64,000 bases of DNA from a virus: IMG/VR virus record IMGVR_UViG_3300024339_000005. One strand, 5' to 3'. Below the pieces are notes generated by a model, which saw only the letters and a program-made list of their open reading frames with translations, made no database searches and was not told the DNA's origin. Both the position numbers and the translations under genes were made by a program. Every line of letters begins with the position of its first letter. Position 1 is the first letter of the stretch. This document shows positions 13,253-25,334 of the stretch, one piece after another.

Positions 13253-14359
13253 TCAAACATCGCGTTTGCCGTCCCACATGTGGTACATTACAGGGAACCG
13301 TGGAACACCAGTTGACGACAGGTTTTGAAAACGAATCGTTGCGTCTGAACCAACATGCTTGTCAGCATTGACCAGCAATTGCTTGCAAAACTCACGGTCG
13401 CCTTTGATCCCGGCATTGAATGTCTCGCCGTTAGCCAACTTACAGGTCACAGCCTTACCGTAACCAGTCCAGTTTCCTTGGCCCTCAACAACAGCGACAA
13501 CCTCATATTCCTCATCTTGAAACTCTTTCCGTTTCAACAGGCTCTTGGTTCGCTTGCCTTCATAGAGCGACGAACCAATGCGAAGCATTTGACCTTCTTG
13601 GCCAGCCTCAAGGTAACCCTGGTACAACTGGTCCATTTGCTCTTGGTTTTCCACCTTGTCTGTGGGTGTAACCACAACAGACGGCACATCCTCCATTAGA
13701 TATGTCAAAATATCGAAACGGGTTTCAAAATCCGTATTCAAGTCGATAATGTCATAAACCCAATATTGGAGATTCGCTTTGCTTTCAGCCAGTTGTTCGG
13801 CATTAGGCTTGGCTTTTTTAGCCAGTGAAATCAATTTTTCAAAGTCGTCCCGCAAATGGCTTGCATAAAGTTCGCCATCGAAGACCATTGTGGGGTCACG
13901 TTGGAATTCATCATGTAAGGCTTCAAAGATATGAGGCGCAGAATTGATAGGTTTTCCACCGCGGCTCCACATGCCATCTTTATTGACGATACAGCGCATA
14001 CCATCTAATTTCGGTTGGCTATACAGATCGTCAAAATCAACCGTGGTAGACGGTCCGTAAGTCGCAGCCAGCATAGCTTTCACGAACTTGGCCTTGTCGC
14101 AATCCTCAATACTTCGGTGGTAATGGTTTTCCAACTTTTTGTCATAAGCGGATTGAGCCTGTTTTAAGGCTTGCTCCTCGTCGGTAGTCTCATTTGCTTT
14201 GCCGGGATTCTTACCGAAACACGCGGTCCATTTTGACGTTTGCTTTTTGCCATCAGTCTGACCGCTTACGGTACGATAGGCACTGCCTTCAACTTCGATT
14301 CGCCACTGTTGAATTTTACCAGCAGAGGTGCGTTTGTAAATGTTTGGAAATGTTTTCAT
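13253..14359 (-). CDS. ATP-dependent DNA ligase with WGR-like N-terminal domain
   Basis: KLDG adenylation motif (QPKLDGMR), FDGELY, EGQMLR, LLKRK, PRFP. Confidence 0.92.
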   Translation of the reverse strand: MKTFPNIYKRTSAGKIQQWRIEVEGSAYRTVSGQTDGKKQTSKWTACFGKNPGKANETTDEEQALKQAQSAYDKKLENHYHRSIEDCDKAKFVKAMLAATYGPSTTVDFDDLYSQPKLDGMRCIVNKDGMWSRGGKPINSAPHIFEALHDEFQRDPTMVFDGELYASHLRDDFEKLISLAKKAKPNAEQLAESKANLQYWVYDIIDLNTDFETRFDILTYLMEDVPSVVVTPTDKVENQEQMDQLYQGYLEAGQEGQMLRIGSSLYEGKRTKSLLKRKEFQDEEYEVVAVVEGQGNWTGYGKAVTCKLANGETFNAGIKGDREFCKQLLVNADKHVGSDATIRFQNLSSTGVPRFPVMYHMWDGKRDV

Positions 14360-15014: not shown

Positions 15015-15548
15015 TTATACCTTTTTTGCTGTGAATCCTTTGCTTTTTCCATATTTTATGAGATTTCCCTGGTCTACACCACGCGCCCCTGACCACTCCC
15101 TTAGGTTGACAATGACGTAGGGTTCTCCACCAGGTTCTGATACCAAGAATTGTTTAGAATTTCCTGCGCCAATAGCGTCTTTTCTCTCTTGGCTGTGTTT
15201 CTTGCCTCTATGTTTATCAGCAATCTTGTCCCGGGTTTCTTGTGATACTGGTTTGCCCCGGTGCTTTTCCCTGTTATTTTCAAGTTGCTCCTCGGTCCAG
15301 ATTCCGGTCTTCCCCTTATTCCAGGGTATGCTACCAGTCATGCGCTCTTTATGTGCGGCACGGTGCGCTTCTGCATTTGTGATTTGACCAGATAAACATT
15401 TCCAAGCAATACGGTCATATTCGTTACCATATTCTTCATAGAGTTTTCTATGCGCTTCGGCATGTTCTGGTATGGTTAGGAGAATGAGATTCGGTGGATC
15501 ATCGGTGCCACCTGAGTGTCTCGGTATTATATGATGTTTGTGTTTCAT
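15015..15548 (-). CDS. HNH homing endonuclease with NUMOD3 repeats
   Basis: HKHHIIPRHSGGTDDPPNL...EHAEAH; PWNKGK, HRGKKHSQE. Confidence 0.88.
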   Translation of the reverse strand: MKHKHHIIPRHSGGTDDPPNLILLTIPEHAEAHRKLYEEYGNEYDRIAWKCLSGQITNAEAHRAAHKERMTGSIPWNKGKTGIWTEEQLENNREKHRGKPVSQETRDKIADKHRGKKHSQERKDAIGAGNSKQFLVSEPGGEPYVIVNLREWSGARGVDQGNLIKYGKSKGFTAKKV

Positions 15549-15667: not shown

Positions 15668-17029
15668 TCACATGAGATTGTCGACCGCAATAATTCTGTA
15701 ATAAGAGTTCTTATTAGCGAACGATACAACACCATCGGCTGCCGAAGTCGCATATGGGTTAGCAACAAGGCCATACCTGGTCTTGAATCCGATTTTGGGC
15801 TGGAACGTATTCTCGCCAATAGCGCGAACCATTTGTAGTGGCACGTATGGGCAATAGAACATACCGGCATCAAAAGGACTTGAACCTTTATAACCAACAG
15901 TAGCATACTGGATACCAGATGTGGCTGCAAAGTAAGGGTCGATATAAACCTTGAACTGACCGTTCAGGTTACCAACGAAGGTGTTGCCTGTGTCGTCAGA
16001 GGTGATGCTGTTGTTCAAAGCAGGTGATGTATCAAGAACACCAGCCATGTTCAATGCAGAGGCAACGTCACTTGAACAAACAAGCATGTTACCTTTACCA
16101 CGACGAGTAGCCTTGGCAATTGCGTTGGCTTCGCGCTCCAATTGGAACATCAAGCCCTTGAACTTTTCAACAGACCAACGTCCGTTTGCGTCTTGGTCAA
16201 GATCGAATGTACCAGCAGAAGCGACGTTTTCTTGGGCGCCGATTGTAGCAGAGATATTGATCTTACGAACCATTTCGCGGTTGATTTCAGCCAGGATTTC
16301 TGTTGACAGAATGTTAGACAATTCTGTTTCAGCATCCAAACCATGAACGGCTTTCAAGTCTTGAGCCAATTCCATGGTGTATTCAGCTTTAAGCGCACGA
16401 CTAAGGGCTGTCACGGTGATTTTCTCGATTGAGAAAGCCATTTCAGGGAAGTCATGTGTTGTTGCTTCGCCAAGTCTTTCAGCAAGTGCTGTTGACATAG
16501 CGGTAGCGGCTGTGTAAGTGTCACCGTCGACAGGTGTCGCAACAGGTGAAGAACCAAGTTGGTTGTTAGCAACAAGAGCCATCGCAGCATTACCAGCAGC
16601 AGCGGCTGAGAATGTTGTGTTTGCTTCGTTATGAAGTGCTTCAGTACCAGTTTGGTTGGTGTAGCGTGAACGCATAGCAAAGATAAGTCCGGTTGGACCA
16701 GTCATAGGCTGAACGCCCATCATATCAAAAGCCATTAGGTTCGGTGCAGCACGGCGAAGTAGTGAAATCAACACTGGATCGAAAATGTCGATAGCGCCGT
16801 CGCCAGCAGTAGAAGAAGAAGCACCCATGTTGTTCGTTGGTGCAGCTTCCAATAGAGATTGTGGTCCACGGTAGCCACCATTGCCAGCGGCATTGGTACG
16901 GGCATCCGTTTCTTGGTTCTCTAGCAGAGTTGCGATAACCGAGCGTTTGTGAGCATCCTCGATCTTAGGTAGATCGGGGTGTTCTATTACTGGCTGCCAC
17001 TTCTCTTGTAGTTCGTGATTGAGCAACAT
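15668..17029 (-). CDS. gp23: major capsid protein
   Basis: LLENQE, FDPVLISL, GVQPMTGPTGLIFAMRSRY, YCPYVPLQM, QPKIGFKTRYG. Confidence 0.99.
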   Translation of the reverse strand: MLLNHELQEKWQPVIEHPDLPKIEDAHKRSVIATLLENQETDARTNAAGNGGYRGPQSLLEAAPTNNMGASSSTAGDGAIDIFDPVLISLLRRAAPNLMAFDMMGVQPMTGPTGLIFAMRSRYTNQTGTEALHNEANTTFSAAAAGNAAMALVANNQLGSSPVATPVDGDTYTAATAMSTALAERLGEATTHDFPEMAFSIEKITVTALSRALKAEYTMELAQDLKAVHGLDAETELSNILSTEILAEINREMVRKINISATIGAQENVASAGTFDLDQDANGRWSVEKFKGLMFQLEREANAIAKATRRGKGNMLVCSSDVASALNMAGVLDTSPALNNSITSDDTGNTFVGNLNGQFKVYIDPYFAATSGIQYATVGYKGSSPFDAGMFYCPYVPLQMVRAIGENTFQPKIGFKTRYGLVANPYATSAADGVVSFANKNSYYRIIAVDNLM

Positions 17030-17070: not shown

Positions 17071-18210
17071 TTAGCGTTTTGTAGTGCGAGAAATGGCGTC
17101 CATATACGGGCTCATCGCTGGGTCCGCTTTTCGGGCTTCTGATTCGCTACCGTCGTCAATAGCTTCGTCAGATACTTCTTCACTTAGAACGACAACTTTG
17201 CCATCTGTTGGGAAATAACTTTCCTTCAGAGTAACAACTTTGTCACGATAATCATCTTCACTATCGAAATCAACGCCTTCGGCGAGTGCTTTCAATTTTT
17301 CTGCCTGAGTGTCAACGAGACCTTCAGTCACTTCCGCAACAATTTCAGCCATTGTCAGAGTGTCTTTTTCCTGACGAAGGTCGATAGAAGCATTCAATGC
17401 TTCATCTAATTGCGCTTCTAGATCTTGGTTACGAAGGGCCAATTCCTCAACAACGTCAACCTTTTCTTCGGGTACGTCAATGAAATGGTCTTCCAACAAG
17501 CCGTGTAGGCCAGTAATGAAAGATTCGGCTAGTTCGTTACGAATACCAGAATCGATAGCTAGTTCGTTTTCTGATACCCATTCTTCGCAAACATATTCAA
17601 GATATGTATCAACTTTTTGAGCCATTTCCGCCACAAGAGCATCACTGGTTTCAGTAAGTTCTGCTTCAGCCGCTTCTGCAATTTGCTGGGCAACTTCGTT
17701 AGCCTTAGCAACAACAGCGGCTTCAAAGATAGTAGTTGCAGTGGCTTTGAATTCCTCGGAAAGGTCTTCATCACCGAACATTGCAGCAACGTCGGCTGCA
17801 AGGTCAACATCTTCTTTGGTTACTTTTTTGAAAGGGTTTTCTTTTTTCTCGGACTTTTTATCGTCGTCGTCTTCATCGTCGTCATCATCTTCATCGTCGG
17901 CTTCAACGAGAGAACCCATGACGCCATCGAACATTGATTCAAGTTCGAGGGTGGATTTGTCTTTCATGCTGTCAATAACAGCATTAATCATATCCGCTTT
18001 AGTCAATTCTTCTTCGACTTCTTCGTTTTTCAACGCTTCTTTAGCAGAAATGGTTTCTTGGCTTTGGGCGCCTTTTTTCTTCTTGCCGTCAGCTTTTGGA
18101 TCTTCAGCGTTCTTACTTTTGTCAGAATCGCTAATTTCGGAGCCCTTCACAACAGGCGTGCCAGAATGGTCAGCCTTGAATTCGTCCAATTGTTCATCTT
18201 TGATAGACAT
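17071..18210 (-). CDS. gp22: prohead core scaffold protein
   Basis: LSEEFKATATTIFEAAV, VDTYLEYVCEEW, LKESYF; acidic. Confidence 0.95.
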   Translation of the reverse strand: MSIKDEQLDEFKADHSGTPVVKGSEISDSDKSKNAEDPKADGKKKKGAQSQETISAKEALKNEEVEEELTKADMINAVIDSMKDKSTLELESMFDGVMGSLVEADDEDDDDDEDDDDKKSEKKENPFKKVTKEDVDLAADVAAMFGDEDLSEEFKATATTIFEAAVVAKANEVAQQIAEAAEAELTETSDALVAEMAQKVDTYLEYVCEEWVSENELAIDSGIRNELAESFITGLHGLLEDHFIDVPEEKVDVVEELALRNQDLEAQLDEALNASIDLRQEKDTLTMAEIVAEVTEGLVDTQAEKLKALAEGVDFDSEDDYRDKVVTLKESYFPTDGKVVVLSEEVSDEAIDDGSESEARKADPAMSPYMDAISRTTKR

Positions 18211-18254: not shown

Positions 18255-18905
18255 TTAGAGTCTTGAAAGAAAATCCTGAAAAACAGCAAGTTTGCTTTCC
18301 TCAAGTTCTCTCCTAGACGCCTTTTGAATCACTTGTTGGTGACGGGCAATATCAACTTCTTTGATGATACCGTTTGCCCATACCCATTCTCTACCTTCCA
18401 TAATACCGTCAACGTAAGCATCGGGTGCTGAAGGGTCTGCCACAATGTCAGCCGGAGTAGCCAGATGAAAATCACCTTGTACTTCGTTGACGCCCTGGAC
18501 TTGTTTTAGTGAACCCATGCCACGGCTGGATACACCAAGATTGCCACCGTCTTTGATAAGACCCTTGACAATATCACCCATTGGGGTGCTTGAAATTTTT
18601 GCTTTACCAATGAAGTTATTACCTTCTTTGACAAGCGACGTAATGCGGTGTGACGCACGGTCGAGGTTGATGGTCGGTCCTGTAGGATGACCAAGTTCGC
18701 CCCATGCTCTACCCTTATCGACATTTTCAGTCACATAACGGGCAACTTCACGTTCCAGGATCGCGCTTGGATATTTACGACCATTACGGTTAGCGACTTC
18801 AGACTGCATAAACACTCCATTGATATATAGAGTTTTCTCACCAGTCGCTTCGTTCAATTCCTCAAACGGTTTAACGTCTTCAGACATTTCTGTAATTAGT
18901 TTCAT
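18255..18905 (-). CDS. gp21: prohead core protease
   Basis: MKLITE start, NRNGRKY, GELGHP, GVSSRGMGS, DIVADPSAPDA. Confidence 0.97.
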   Translation of the reverse strand: MKLITEMSEDVKPFEELNEATGEKTLYINGVFMQSEVANRNGRKYPSAILEREVARYVTENVDKGRAWGELGHPTGPTINLDRASHRITSLVKEGNNFIGKAKISSTPMGDIVKGLIKDGGNLGVSSRGMGSLKQVQGVNEVQGDFHLATPADIVADPSAPDAYVDGIMEGREWVWANGIIKEVDIARHQQVIQKASRRELEESKLAVFQDFLSRL

Positions 18906-18915
18906 TGTTTTTCCT

Positions 18916-19695
18916 TTATGCGGGACCGCTAGTTGGGAATTCTTCTGTTGCGATTGTGTAGTTGCCTGTATAACGAGCCACACCTTTTGTTATTCTCAAT
19001 TCATCCATCCAACCAGAAAGTGGGCCATCTGGACCTACTATTGAATCCCAGTTATCACCAATGCGTGTTGTGTGGTTACCGTTTGTGTAGTTATTACTAT
19101 CAGCAAACGAACCTACTTCAACACCATCTACAAACAGATATGATGTACCACCTGTTCTAGTCCAAGCAATAGCATACCATACACCAGTTGTTAAACCAGC
19201 GCCTGTTGAACCATATTCTGTACCGTTATAGAAGTGAATTTCATTTCTGTATGCTTCCGCAGCCGCCGGACCAAAAATATCAATTGCCCATGGTGCTGCG
19301 CTGTTAGTTGATCTAAAGTCTAGCAGGTTGATGCCTGCTGTACCAAAGGCATTCAGTTTAACTCTCATTTCAACAGTTAAATCACCAGTTCCAAATGTCA
19401 TTTCAGTTCCAGCATTTATAGAAACATAATGATCGTGAGTGCCTGGTAAGATAAGGGACGCTGTACCGAATACTTTTTCGGCTGTATCAAGTTCTGCGGT
19501 GCCAACGGCAGCTAATGTTTTTAAGCCTGTTTCATCAACAAACGTGGTTGAAGCGTCTGTACCATTGAATTTAGAATATAGTACAACATTATCCCAATAA
19601 GGATCAGTAGCAGGCGCACCTCCACCACCAGAGAACCTGGAAGCAGGATTCACGATAGCCATATTAGTAAGAGATATGCCAGCACCCAATTTCAT
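18916..19695 (-). CDS. putative head spike fibre with LamG/concanavalin-A-like domain
   Basis: N-terminal MKLGAGISLT, Gly linker, DPYWDNVVL, LamG signature WYAIAWTR...LFVDG...GWMDELRITKGVARY. Confidence 0.75.
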   Translation of the reverse strand: MKLGAGISLTNMAIVNPASRFSGGGGAPATDPYWDNVVLYSKFNGTDASTTFVDETGLKTLAAVGTAELDTAEKVFGTASLILPGTHDHYVSINAGTEMTFGTGDLTVEMRVKLNAFGTAGINLLDFRSTNSAAPWAIDIFGPAAAEAYRNEIHFYNGTEYGSTGAGLTTGVWYAIAWTRTGGTSYLFVDGVEVGSFADSNNYTNGNHTTRIGDNWDSIVGPDGPLSGWMDELRITKGVARYTGNYTIATEEFPTSGPA

Positions 19696-19698
19696 GGT

Positions 19699-19977
19699 TT
19701 AGTACATTCCGATTACGCTGTTGGCTGTTGAGTTAGTCCACACTTTACGGACGCGCAAAGGCAGAACAGTACCAGCTGGAATAGCGGTAAATGTAACGGT
19801 GTTTCCTGAAGCCATACCTGCAAGTTCAACAACAAGAGTACCAGTCTCACCAACATAAACCGAACGGGTCGTATGTGTGGTGTTTGCTGTGTTACTTGAT
19901 GTTATAGCATAGGAATGCGCCGCAGGACTATCTAGGTCCGTATAGAAATTATTGAATTTATCGGTTTGATTAGGCAT
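19699..19977 (-). CDS. head spike base protein, RcGTA Rcc01079-like family
   Basis: D.F....L.SPA...IT.S...TRSVYVGETGTL.V...VTF..IPAG.VLPLRVRKV...TA pattern, recognised by eye. Confidence 0.75.
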   Translation of the reverse strand: MPNQTDKFNNFYTDLDSPAAHSYAITSSNTANTTHTTRSVYVGETGTLVVELAGMASGNTVTFTAIPAGTVLPLRVRKVWTNSTANSVIGMY

Positions 19978-19980
19978 GAT

Positions 19981-21363
19981 TTACCCCACTGCTTTCAGAA
20001 TTGCGTCTTCGTTATGTCCATCTTTTTGTAGGGTTTTCATAATGGCTTCATCACTTTTACCCTTGCCCCTCAAGCGTTTGACTTCTCTTTGTGCAAATTC
20101 TAAGGACGATTTTTTGAGAACCTTCATCATTCCGGCGCTCTGCTTATCAGCGTTTTTTTTAGAAAGGGCTTCGTCAATAAAACTACCGAAAGATTCGAGA
20201 CCCTCTTTACGAGTTTCTTTGTTCTTGGCTTTCAATGCTTTCTTGGCTGCGTCTTCTGCATCATCTACAGATTTTTCAACACCGTCAGCCGCTTTATGAA
20301 CATCACGGATGCCTCTCTTGGCACCTTTAGCAGCCAGAACGGCTTTACCAGCGTCGGAAACTTCATCAAGTTCAACTTCTTCTTTAACACCAGAAGTGAT
20401 AATATCAAACGCTTTTTTAGAAGCGGCCTCTTGGCTCATACCTTTTTTAACAAATTCCTTTGTCATTTCAATATGGCGCTTGATGCTGTTTTCAATCGCT
20501 TTACTACCACCGGCTCTTGGGCGATTAGCTTTGATTTCATCAAGTTCAACTTCCTCTTTGATGCTTGCAACAGCCTTCCAAAACTTAGGGTTACCTGTCA
20601 GTTTAGAAATGACTTGTACCACACGCTTTTTGATTTGGTCTGCGTTATCAGGCGCAAAGGAACCGAACATGAAATCGTCTTCAAATGGTCTGGAACCACG
20701 ACTAAAGATATGGATGATCGAATTCCAGTAATTTGTTTCTTCTTTGTCTTTGATATGCTTCTTGGCAAACGCCTTCATTTGTTTACCGATTTCCATATAA
20801 GCCTTGGCTTGGTCAGATTTGTTGAGCATCTTACCTTGAGCAGCGGCGAAATAAGGAATCGCTTTTAGTTGTAGTGCGCCTTCAGCCAATTCAGTTTCTT
20901 CGTTTTCAATCAGATTATAATAGTCGATACCTTTAGCAGCCTTCGCGTCATAACCACTAATGAACTTTTTGACCTTTGCGGGATCATCTTTGATAGTAAC
21001 ACCATCTGGTCCTTTGGACCGACCCATGCGATAGGTAAATTTAGCATTTAGACCTTTGGCTTTTGCTGCCTTCAACATTTCTTCTGGGTCAAAATCAAAG
21101 TTTTCTTGATCTGCATTGAATTCATATTTCTTAGCTTCACCCAATTCAGTTTCTTCAGCATGAACAGAAGACCGAGCGCCTGTTGCTTTGCCTTTGAAAA
21201 CCTCGTCACCCGCAGTTGGGTGCTTAGTCATATCAGCCAGCTTCTTGCCCTTTTTGAGCGAATTAGCGGCTTTGACTTCTGGATTTTCAGGCTCCATTTC
21301 CTGTGGGTTTGCCTCGGGTACCTCTTGAAGGTCTCGGCGCATTTGTCTAAATGATTTACTCAT
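19981..21363 (-). CDS. modular prohead core/internal protein at the gp68 position
   Basis: Charged protein between gp67 and gp21; four EE(T/V)EL(G/A/D)E linkers. Confidence 0.7.
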   Translation of the reverse strand: MSKSFRQMRRDLQEVPEANPQEMEPENPEVKAANSLKKGKKLADMTKHPTAGDEVFKGKATGARSSVHAEETELGEAKKYEFNADQENFDFDPEEMLKAAKAKGLNAKFTYRMGRSKGPDGVTIKDDPAKVKKFISGYDAKAAKGIDYYNLIENEETELAEGALQLKAIPYFAAAQGKMLNKSDQAKAYMEIGKQMKAFAKKHIKDKEETNYWNSIIHIFSRGSRPFEDDFMFGSFAPDNADQIKKRVVQVISKLTGNPKFWKAVASIKEEVELDEIKANRPRAGGSKAIENSIKRHIEMTKEFVKKGMSQEAASKKAFDIITSGVKEEVELDEVSDAGKAVLAAKGAKRGIRDVHKAADGVEKSVDDAEDAAKKALKAKNKETRKEGLESFGSFIDEALSKKNADKQSAGMMKVLKKSSLEFAQREVKRLRGKGKSDEAIMKTLQKDGHNEDAILKAVG

Positions 21364-21535
21364 CAGGTTCCTCGTCTGTTTGGGATTGAAGCCACGTCGC
21401 GGCTATAGAAGCCCGCTTGACGTTCAGAGCGTCTGCAACTTTATCGCCCATTACTGCGGTCACGGCTTCTTTTACTTTGCCTGCTTCACCCGCTAGTGAA
21501 TGCCTTACGATATCTGTTGTTGTGTATTCGGTCAT
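21356..21535 (-). CDS. gp67: prohead core protein
   Basis: Small helical protein after the portal with late promoter and AGGAGA; KVADALNVKRASIA pattern. Confidence 0.7.
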   Translation of the reverse strand: MTEYTTTDIVRHSLAGEAGKVKEAVTAVMGDKVADALNVKRASIAATWLQSQTDEEPDE

Positions 21536-21553: not shown

Positions 21554-21561
21554 TATTTATA
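21554..21561 (-). promoter_or_regulatory. T4-type late promoter (gp67)
   Basis: TATAAATA. Confidence 0.8.
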
Positions 21562-22040: not shown

Positions 22041-23657
22041 TCACTTCTTTGGCTCTGGCTCCGGTGCGCCAGGTAACTGACGGTCTTCCTCGTCTGGAAG
22101 TTGCTCTATAGGTTCTTCGCGTGTAGCCGCGTCTGGTCGTCCAGAGAAAGCACCGAAGTTTGTGTCACCAGTTTCTTCTGGATCTACTCCTTCCGCTTCA
22201 TCCTCTTTCATAGCCTTAGCCAATTCTTCGATTTCTTCATCAGTCTGGCGAAGAATATTCTTTTTGACCCACTCAAGAGAATAGTAACGACCAACATAGG
22301 CGTCAACATCATTCAAGATGGTCATGCGTTCGCGCAAGATTTCCTGGTTCTTTGATTCAGCAAAGTGGTTATCTTCACGGAAGTCATAAAAGATATCCTC
22401 TTTGATGATATTCCATGTTGCTTTGTCTGTGATACCCTTGAGAATTAGTTGGGTTTCAAGAAAATCGTCAAACATTTCGGCAAACTGCATACGCAATCTG
22501 TTGATAAACTTTGAGAATTTCAATTCGTCACGGGTAATTTCACTTGCACGACCAAGATTAAATGCGCCGTCTGCTTCCATACGAGAGATAGGTACGTTCA
22601 AGGCCTTGTAAAATTTGTTTTTGAAGAATTCAACATCCTCAATTTGACCCAAGTTCTCACCACCGGGTAGTGTAGAAATCTCTGTTCCTTTGCCACCTTC
22701 ACGACGAGGCAACCAGAAATCTTCCATCATAGTCTGGAATTTACGGTCGTCTTTGATTTCACCAGTCGAGGCGTCATAGACCAGTTTGTTCTTATGCTTG
22801 ACCATCATATCTTTGAGATATTGTTCCGCCTTCATCTTCGGCAGGTTACCAACGTCAATGTAGAAAATGCGACGTTCGGGTGCGCGAGAGATACGGTAAA
22901 TGACCAATGAGTCTTCCATCCAACGCATCTGGTTCCAAATCTTTAGAGCCTTATTCAAATGCGAAAGGATGATGGTGTTTCGTTCGTTGATAATACCGGA
23001 GTGAACATAGGTAATCGAATCTTTAGCGATACGAATACCCTCGTTCATGTTACTGGCGATGCCACGTTCGTTGTATAGGTAGAATTCTTTATATGACGGT
23101 GCAATAGAAACAACAGGTCTGTTAGTGTCCTTCGGTGCAATCTGCTTACGAACCTTCTTGATTTTACGAGGGTCGATATAGCGCAATTCCAGAATGCCCT
23201 GCCTTGGCTTCTTTACGTCAATCATCTTGTGGTAATACAAACGACCGTCTACGTACCAGCGTTTGAAAATATCATAAGCCTTGTTGTTGAAATCCATCAA
23301 CTTGAGAATCTGTTCAAATTCTTCGGTGATTTTCTTTTTGATAGCCTCTGGCTGTTCCAGTTTGTCTAACTTGATTTCAACAGGAGACTTGTAGTTCTCC
23401 ATTATGATCGCTTCGTTTACGATATCATCAATGGCTCTTTCACCCTCAGGTGATAAAGCAAGTTCTCTGTATTTTGTGATAAGTTGCGCTTCGTTTTTTG
23501 AAGTCGCGTCCATATCCAAATATGTACCGAAGACGCCATTTTCCGCAACCGTCATAGCCGCGTCGTGGTTAGCCGGAGCGGTGAACGATTGAATGTTCTC
23601 TCGCTTTTTGTCTTCTTTTTCTACACGGCCAATTTGATAGCCGAACAACTGAATCAT
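22041..23657 (-). CDS. gp20: portal vertex protein
   Basis: WYVDGRLYYH, LRYIDPRKI, IYRISRAPERRIFYIDVGNLPK, EDFWLPRREGGKGTE. Confidence 0.99.
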   Translation of the reverse strand: MIQLFGYQIGRVEKEDKKRENIQSFTAPANHDAAMTVAENGVFGTYLDMDATSKNEAQLITKYRELALSPEGERAIDDIVNEAIIMENYKSPVEIKLDKLEQPEAIKKKITEEFEQILKLMDFNNKAYDIFKRWYVDGRLYYHKMIDVKKPRQGILELRYIDPRKIKKVRKQIAPKDTNRPVVSIAPSYKEFYLYNERGIASNMNEGIRIAKDSITYVHSGIINERNTIILSHLNKALKIWNQMRWMEDSLVIYRISRAPERRIFYIDVGNLPKMKAEQYLKDMMVKHKNKLVYDASTGEIKDDRKFQTMMEDFWLPRREGGKGTEISTLPGGENLGQIEDVEFFKNKFYKALNVPISRMEADGAFNLGRASEITRDELKFSKFINRLRMQFAEMFDDFLETQLILKGITDKATWNIIKEDIFYDFREDNHFAESKNQEILRERMTILNDVDAYVGRYYSLEWVKKNILRQTDEEIEELAKAMKEDEAEGVDPEETGDTNFGAFSGRPDAATREEPIEQLPDEEDRQLPGAPEPEPKK

Positions 23658-24572: not shown

Positions 24573-25334
24573 ATGAAATATACCTACTTGATAGGCTGGA
24601 AAGAAAAGAATGTCTGGTACTATGGTGTACGCTATGCCCGTGGCTGCAAACCAGAAGACTTGTTCACCAGCTATTTCACCTCATCAAAATATGTCCATGA
24701 ATGTATGAGATCCTGGGGTCTGCCCGACGTTATTCAGGTACGAAAGACATTTGAGAAACGTCATAATGCCCTCGTATGGGAGCAGAAAGTCCTGCGCCGG
24801 ATGCAGGTGTTGAACGAAACGAAATGGCTCAACAAAAACATTTCGGGCGGAATTGCCTTTGATGATGTAATCCGCAAGAAAATGTCTCTGCGAAAACTGG
24901 GGCGTATCTGGGTGTATAATGAAGACGGTAAAATTATGATAGACAAAGACCTTGAATCATATTACCTGAGTCAGGGATATAAGAAGGGCCATGGTCAAAG
25001 CCAGAAGGGTGAGAAAAACAATATGTACGGCAAAAAGCATAGCGCCGAGTCGAAGGCTAAAATAGGCAAGACTAATAGCCGTTCGACATTGACAGAAGAA
25101 GGCCGGAAAGTGAAAGCGGAATTCACTCGCAACAATAATCCAATGGATAATCCTGATATTAGAGCGAAGCATAGGGAAGCCACGAAAGCCTCTGGCACCA
25201 GTTCTCGTAAAGTCACCGATGGCTATAAAGAATACTCATCAATTCGTAGTGCCAATGAAGACTACCCAGAGGTGAAATATCAAACCTTGTATTCTTGGGT
25301 TGTAGGACAAAAAAATGGGTGGAACTATTGCTAG
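24573..25334 (+). CDS. Seg-like GIY-YIG homing endonuclease with NUMOD3, antisense between gp18 and gp19
   Basis: YTYLIGW...YYGVRY...YFTSSK, WLNKN, NNMYGKKHSAESKAKI. Confidence 0.85.
   Translation: MKYTYLIGWKEKNVWYYGVRYARGCKPEDLFTSYFTSSKYVHECMRSWGLPDVIQVRKTFEKRHNALVWEQKVLRRMQVLNETKWLNKNISGGIAFDDVIRKKMSLRKLGRIWVYNEDGKIMIDKDLESYYLSQGYKKGHGQSQKGEKNNMYGKKHSAESKAKIGKTNSRSTLTEEGRKVKAEFTRNNNPMDNPDIRAKHREATKASGTSSRKVTDGYKEYSSIRSANEDYPEVKYQTLYSWVVGQKNGWNYC

Follow-up and report, generated by a model that had tools for sequence, protein, structure and literature searches.

What is a gene for a chain of apparently unrelated small modules doing in the middle of a phage head operon? The question is raised by a polyprotein gene of 460 amino acids (positions 19981-21363, minus strand, stop codon included) that was identified from the list of open reading frames (ORFs) and the sequence of a 64,000-nucleotide stretch of viral DNA, IMG/VR record IMGVR_UViG_3300024339_000005. 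This whole stretch, referred to here as the window, is part of the genome of an uncultured marine T4-like myovirus and carries a gp20/gp21/gp22/gp23 head operon on the minus strand. The gene lies between those for the portal and the S77 prohead protease, which is the slot of genes 67 and 68 in T4, the textbook phage that ships proteins inside its head. We propose, with a probability of about 0.6, that it encodes a late-expressed, capsid-targeted cargo polyprotein that is cut by the prohead protease and whose linkers double as recombination joints.

The protein is divided by four copies of an acidic linker, EExELxE, at residues 70-76, 155-161, 270-276 and 328-334, the last two with a preceding Lys (269-276 and 327-334), and by a fifth boundary that ends in I-D-E at residue 398. 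A six-frame translation of the whole 64 kb contained EE.EL.E four times, in each case inside the 460-residue ORF, and a looser form of the acidic linker was confined within the window to this ORF as well. From the composition of the protein, 0.0023 copies are expected in each shuffled version (Poisson P(≥4) = 1e-12), and the richest of 200,000 shuffles of the target had two; a chance origin of the four copies is excluded. The linkers are also repeats at the DNA level. Those encoding linkers 3 and 4 (20536-20559 and 20362-20385) are identical at 23 of 24 positions, and those encoding linkers 1 and 2 (21136-21156 and 20881-20901) at 20 of 21, or at 21 of 22 when taken one nucleotide wider (21135-21156 and 20880-20901). 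Both identities (23/24 and 20/21) are moderately above what the same peptide combined with the codon bias of the phage would give (P ~0.04 and ~0.004, respectively).

The linkers and the fifth boundary delimit six modules of ~58-115 residues that are mutually unrelated (all pairwise E > 0.5). An earlier reading of the window from its letters alone (the sequence-only reading) had described the four linkers, the I-D-E boundary, the repetition of the linkers in the DNA and the lack of similarity between the modules; each of these descriptions proved correct, and the EExELxE linkers are unique to this ORF in the window. The leader module, M0 (residues 1-76; 21136-21363, minus strand, as are all modules), was recognized by a start that resembles the capsid-targeting sequence (CTS) of T4 and by an HP-x-AGDE-x-F-x-G block. 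It ends in linker 1 (EETELGE), where the motif predicts a cut after Glu76 and where the DNA identity to a syntenic relative, L124, collapses. M1 (residues 77-161; 20881-21135) ends in linker 2 and the helical M2 (residues 162-276; 20536-20880) in linker 3. M3 (residues 277-334; 20362-20535), an RPRAGG helical hairpin, ends in linker 4, and M4 (residues 335-398; 20170-20361) ends in S-F-I-D-E (20170-20196). The conserved C-terminal module, M5 (residues 399-460; 19984-20169), has its last ~40 residues in common with two orthologs, P0002 and P0009. Without their linkers the modules are basic, with isoelectric points (pI) of 8.8-10.2, and the predicted products have masses of 6.4-13.1 kDa, four of the six being basic.

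In T4, the prohead protease gp21 cuts after the Glu of L/I-x-E (PMC9026906). An (L/I)-x-E motif is present at every inter-module boundary of the target, and each of its eight (L/I)-x-E sites falls in the N-terminal propeptide, at a boundary or at most eight residues upstream of one. The presumed processing enzyme is encoded nearby, at 18255-18983 (minus strand), by a gp21-type Peptidase_S77 gene (Pfam PF03420, 2e-41). Its product is 42% identical to T4 gp21 and retains, in alignment with it, the GEL-x-HP and GVSSRG motifs, whose His and Ser we take to be the catalytic residues of the T4 enzyme. The gp23-type major capsid protein of the window (15668-17029, minus strand) has an L-L-E61/A sequence that aligns exactly with the L-T-E65/A maturation site of its T4 counterpart, in which Glu65 is presumably the point of cleavage. 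The match between the linkers and the T4 rule, which the sequence-only reading had pointed out, is thus accompanied by a protease of the right family with its catalytic motifs conserved.

The same rule can be read from linkers that the search motif did not select. Among the acidic linkers of relatives that fall outside this motif, 56% of 7-mers have Leu or Ile at position P3, compared with a background of 10%, and 72% of 8-mers have Ile, Val or Leu there. Because this aliphatic enrichment at P3 is seen in non-ascertained linkers, the conserved core of the linker corresponds to the protease rule and not to acidity alone. The orthologs P0002 and P0009 also carry an (L/I)-x-E site, immediately ahead of their conserved last module. 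On the strength of these motifs the linkers are predicted to be cut sites of the gp21-type prohead protease.

The N-terminus of the polyprotein provides a candidate targeting signal. The first ten residues of the T4 internal protein IPIII constitute its CTS, which is cut off at I-A-E (PMC9026906; for the T4 CTS sequence see bioRxiv 2021.01.19.427310). The target begins with M-S-K-S-F-R-Q-M-R-R-D-L-Q-E, and these 14 residues (21322-21363, minus strand) resemble a T4 CTS in pattern: a putative propeptide of about ten residues with hydrophobic positions 4 and 7 and an (L/I)-x-E end, here L-Q-E. An N-terminus much like the T4 CTS, with M-(x)-K-T/S-F/L/Y first and (L/I/V)-x-E after it, is common to the target, its orthologs and the polyproteins found in the same slot elsewhere, and the block behind this start is conserved across the same-slot polyproteins (P-K-x-x-D-E-x-x-F ... 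H-P-x-A-x-D-x-x-F-x-G). A CTS-like start was found in 23 of 123 linker-bearing ORFs among the matches listed, with ~5 expected from a rough density estimate. A complex prediction for the gp22-type scaffold and the leader module returned a score of 0.00 and, having been run without controls, weighs neither way on binding. The ATP-dependent DNA ligase of the window (13253-14359, minus strand) was considered as a second CTS protein and rejected; it starts with M-K-T-F, has no later (L/I)-x-E and was put down to coincidence.

The surroundings of the gene suggest late expression together with the head genes. The upstream border of the variable slot is formed by the gp20-type portal gene (22041-23657, minus strand; Pfam PF07230, 3e-174). 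A small acidic-tailed ORF follows at the position of T4 gene 67 (21356-21535, minus strand), ~59 residues long from its ATG, and its stop overlaps the ATG of the polyprotein gene by 8 nucleotides. Counterparts of this ORF are present in L124, in another locus, L052, and in the cultured phages Mosig and Melnitz; BLAST detected no link to T4 gp67. A T4-type late promoter box, TATAAATA, lies 18 nucleotides upstream of the small ORF (21554-21561, minus strand), and a box at this place is also kept in L124. The window contains 19 copies of the box, compared with 2.4 expected, mostly before late genes (capsid, scaffold, sheath and others). Because most copies of TATAAATA stand directly upstream of late genes, gp55-type late transcription appears to have been retained in this distant relative of T4, whose closest cultured phages are marine Kyanoviridae with a capsid identity of just ~62%. 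On the other side of the protease gene lies that of a gp22-type scaffolding protein (17071-18210, minus strand; Pfam PF25623), which with 3.2 (L/I)-x-E sites per 100 residues has the highest density of such sites in the window.

Comparison with relatives supported the proposal of the sequence-only reading that a single gene holds an array of autonomous, unrelated modules. An exhaustive phmmer search of 1.8 billion representative proteins found no full-length relative of the target; its matches were at the level of modules and limited to the leader M0 (in P0009) or to M3, with no detectable relatives for M1, M2 and M4. The target had no match by tblastn in 50,697 phage records, T4 included, and a search for relatives in viral contigs, both with the whole target and with M3 alone, found nothing. 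Two loci, L124 and L125, have the gene order of the window, and their portal, protease and capsid proteins are 83%, 82% and 85% identical, respectively. In the same slot they carry a gene for a protein of 300 residues (P0002 in L124) that has only the leader (67.5% identical) and the last ~40 residues in common with the target. Colinear orthologs had been named in the sequence-only reading as a finding that would speak against it, and this closest syntenic relative is not colinear. In a DNA alignment of the window with L124, identity spans the small ORF and the leader and ends at linker 1. The leader is 54% identical to that of P0009, which like P0002 also has the last ~40 residues of the target.

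M3 occurs in otherwise unrelated proteins (P0003-P0008, P0010-P0012 and P0014), with an acidic linker before it in most and after it in about half, and on its own as a 57-residue protein, P0013. HNH_3 parts, which score above the cut-off (25.9 bits), or cytidylyltransferase-like parts, which score right at it, are carried by some of the proteins that share M3. In the metagenomic proteins P0005, P0008 and P0003, M3, a cytidylyltransferase-like domain and an HNH_3-like segment are strung together by the eight-residue form of the linker, so that enzyme-sized modules use the same joints. Of the ends of local alignments among linker proteins, 31-32% lie no more than 5 residues from a linker, versus 9.7% at random. 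The linkers also favor one DNA form at silent positions: in 134 linkers among the matches listed, Leu is encoded by CTT in 61% (vs 28%) and the first Glu by GAA in 99% (vs 77%), and linker 4 of the window has exactly the favored form. Homology that ends at linkers at three times the random rate, together with this silent-site bias, fits the suggestion of the sequence-only reading that the linkers serve as recombination points.

The linker is not peculiar to the window. A degenerate DNA pattern of its eight-residue form was searched in viral contigs and matched at least 120 of them, and at every locus the pattern is in frame within a long ORF. Head genes of T4 type are present in the flank of 21 loci, and in 18 of these 21, among the matches listed, the linker ORF occupies the slot between portal and protease. 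Five large contigs carry the linker outside this slot, and an S77 protease is encoded in four of them, both complete genomes included; in five further contig fragments that are 21-31% complete, and hence lack most of each genome, S77 was found in one. No publication describing the linker was found in the literature searched, in line with the view of the sequence-only reading that the system is undescribed.

A cultured cyanophage has related features. Prochlorococcus phage P-TIM68 (KM359505.1) encodes a cytidylyltransferase with a T4-CTS-like N-terminus (L128:1716-2921) and, adjoining it (L128:2934-5954), a hypothetical protein of 1006 residues, which contains two acidic linkers of the (L/I)-x-E kind and shares module types with the uncultured polyproteins. 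As a cultured carrier, P-TIM68 would be tractable for testing cleavage; a search for virion proteomics of this phage gave nothing usable.

For targeting, cleavage, retention and ejection we infer the following course of events. The gene would be transcribed with the head genes from the T4-type late promoter, and the CTS-like propeptide and the conserved leader would draw the entire polyprotein into the prohead's scaffolding core. Once activated, the S77 protease would cut after the Glu of exposed (L/I)-x-E sites, at residue 14 and at each of the five boundaries between modules. Six proteins of ~6-13 kDa, four of them basic, would be released and stay with the DNA like the internal proteins of T4, and they may exit with the DNA at infection. 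A single leader would in this manner load several unrelated cargo modules in equal numbers, and modules could be gained, lost and exchanged at the linkers among related phages with targeting and processing undisturbed. Since the linker is a short conserved in-frame DNA word, we propose that it acts as a microhomology joint. We also consider a more far-reaching version, to which we would give somewhat less than even odds: that this is a widespread 'cut-and-swap' cargo of marine T4-like phages, in which one CTS leader is followed by interchangeable mini-proteins, some of them with possible counter-defense or host-takeover functions, in which a linker of ~24 nucleotides is both cut site and recombination joint, and in which populations trade modules, including free and enzyme-attached ones.

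Several observations weigh against a processed cargo. The products of M0 and M1 would retain a C-terminal acidic linker remnant that makes them acidic (pI ~5.3), a departure from the internal proteins of T4. Short as it is, the (L/I)-x-E motif turns up by chance in many proteins. Selection against internal cuts was considered as a further sign of processing and rejected, the depletion of (L/I)-x-E inside the target modules being non-significant (0 vs ~2.7 expected), and no such depletion inside modules was seen in a wider protein set either. The statistics on linker loci are ascertained and not phylogenetically independent, because the loci were found via the linker itself. In the cultured relatives Mosig and Melnitz the slot is filled by separate small genes and not by a polyprotein. 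Lastly, most of the target folded poorly from its single sequence, with a mean predicted local distance difference test (pLDDT) value of 44, and it is Lys/Glu-rich, helical and scaffold-like.

This last point leads to the rival that survives best, even though we consider it unlikely, namely an accessory scaffold or core protein that stands in for gp68 or gp67, takes part in building the prohead core or setting its size, is afterwards cut up at the same sites and is largely expelled, with modules that are space-filling helices. The gene sits in exactly the slot of T4 genes 67 and 68, its product has the composition, the helicity and the weak folding that such a role would suggest, and the core proteins of T4 are likewise cut into several pieces by gp21 that mostly exit the head (PMC9026906). 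Nor did any module have a recognizable function in Pfam, PHROG and fold searches; the possibly injected effectors that the sequence-only reading had in mind are conjectural. The target matched no Pfam family, so that neither two or more recognizable effector or enzymatic domains nor an internal peptidase (MPTase) was detected in it with Pfam, and its single PHROG match was marginal, short and to a PHROG of unknown function. M5 was the sole part that folded confidently from the single sequence (pLDDT 82-91). An AlphaFold2 model of M3 with its two flanking linkers, built from an 11-row alignment, has a two-helix hairpin core with a pLDDT of 83-92, and the linker stretches in it have values of 44-54; a search of BFVD with the hairpin yielded nothing significant (best E 0.04). 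For M1 and M2, the ESM Atlas gave sub-threshold leads alone, with scores of 0.77-0.79 and template modeling (TM) values of ~0.5-0.6 from a low-confidence model.

Relationship to the core proteins was looked for directly. Homology to T4 gp68 was rejected after hhalign of a 17-member alignment returned a probability of 0.15, homology to gp67 was rejected on the basis of BLAST and family searches, and none of the 17 same-slot polyproteins matches a core-protein family. The window, moreover, already has a complete gp22-type scaffold and an ORF at the gene 67 position. An essential assembly protein would not be expected to differ in its entire interior between phages with 82-85% identity in their head genes, nor to contain a module, M3, that is common to proteins with HNH-like or cytidylyltransferase-like parts and to a free protein of 57 residues.

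An uncut multi-domain protein in the head interior or structure, with the acidic repeats as flexible spacers or as contacts for basic partners that have spread by duplication, appears to us quite improbable. The low-confidence linker stretches of the model do look like spacers, and virion proteins of the N4 type can be packaged unprocessed (PMC5512222). Spacers of this kind do not, however, account for a conserved core of aliphatic P3 and Glu P1 that recurs in non-ascertained linkers and is the rule of a protease, for (L/I)-x-E at the CTS-like N-terminus and at the conserved fifth boundary in different surrounding sequence, or for the co-occurrence of linker and S77 protease in both complete genomes tested. 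Least probable of all is that the linker is mainly a DNA-level, in-frame recombination word for cassette shuffling that matches the protease rule incidentally: the silent-site bias of the 134 linkers listed, the excess identity of the linker pairs in the window, the breaks of homology at linkers and the shuffling of genes via short conserved cassettes in T4-type genomes (PMC2839356) all agree with it, yet (L/I/V)-x-E persists in variant linkers whose codons and residues differ, linker 1 keeps L-x-E although the window and L124 disagree there in both DNA and peptide, and a DNA joint is in any case compatible with the cargo polyprotein and does not exclude it.

The proposed cargo polyprotein shares features with several known systems and matches none of them. 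Its closest parallel is the set of T4 internal proteins IPI, IPII, IPIII and Alt (PMC9026906, PMC3012670), which also belong to a T4-type head with an S77 protease. They have an N-terminal propeptide of ~10-14 residues with the same pattern and an (L/I)-x-E end, give small products (predicted here, with four of six basic) and, past a conserved targeting end, differ greatly in content from one related phage to another. Each of them, however, has its own gene, its own CTS and a single cut, whereas the target has one leader and five further modules with repeated linkers; and they are encoded at the ip loci of T4, while the target gene lies inside the head operon and has no sequence homology to them. 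No homology to IPI, IPII, IPIII or Alt was found with Pfam, the annotated PHROGs or tblastn against the 50,697 phage records. T4 gp67 and gp68 have the portal-protease slot in common with the target and are late core components that are also cut at several (L/I)-x-E sites, but they show no detectable homology to it. The target exceeds them 3-6-fold in length, its interior is mosaic and not conserved, and a separate small ORF already takes the gp67 position here.

The polyvalent proteins that Iyer et al. (2017; PMC5512222) described from phages and conjugative elements are likewise long mosaic chains of unrelated modules that are shuffled, and packaging in the capsid, with delivery alongside the DNA, has been proposed for them. 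The extensive mosaicism of module content that characterizes them was found among the relatives of the target as well. They differ in having recognizable enzymatic or effector domains and a proposed autoproteolysis by an internal metallopeptidase; the target has mini-protein modules without a known domain, which would be separated through recognition of a repeated linker by the prohead protease that the phage itself encodes. In the giant phages phiKZ, 201phi2-1 and SPN3US, many head-internal proteins (ejection and inner-body proteins) are cut after Glu at S/A-x-E, retained and ejected (PMC9026906, PMC7411985), and the prohead protease belongs to the same superfamily as that of the phage studied here. 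Their cargo consists of separate gene products, usually with a single propeptide cut, in contrast to a one-chain array with a uniform extended linker. Finally, the mobile promoter and stem-loop cassettes that mediate shuffling in T4-type phages (PMC2839356) resemble the linker in being short conserved DNA words at module borders that act as recombination joints. They are intergenic and regulatory, whereas the joint in the target is translated in frame, and its peptide would additionally serve as a protease site.

If the cargo polyprotein is real, uniform protease-site linkers within a single chain would represent a logic different from that of T4 and more evolvable, with one targeting signal, several cargoes in equal numbers and swapping between phages cassette by cassette. 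A likely role would also emerge for a large class of small orphan proteins, and of long ORFs labeled 'hypothetical', in the myoviruses that abound in the ocean. Their products could be deduced from nothing but the sequence, with a cut placed after each linker Glu, and the question of which proteins are injected would become a list of candidates of 6-13 kDa. The design of linker plus leader could moreover help to load several foreign proteins into T4-type capsids.

Two further ORFs separate the polyprotein gene from the protease gene, both on the minus strand: one of 92 residues (19699-19977), assigned to PHROG 12296, which is labeled as a tail fiber protein, and one of 259 residues with a LamG domain (18916-19695). 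L124 has a single unrelated ORF of 115 residues in their place, so that variability extends over the entire interval as far as the protease. The late operons of the window are broken up by two likely homing-endonuclease genes, a NUMOD3-motif ORF between the tail tube and sheath genes (24573-25334, plus strand) and an HNH ORF between the genes for the capsid protein and the DNA ligase (15015-15548, minus strand).

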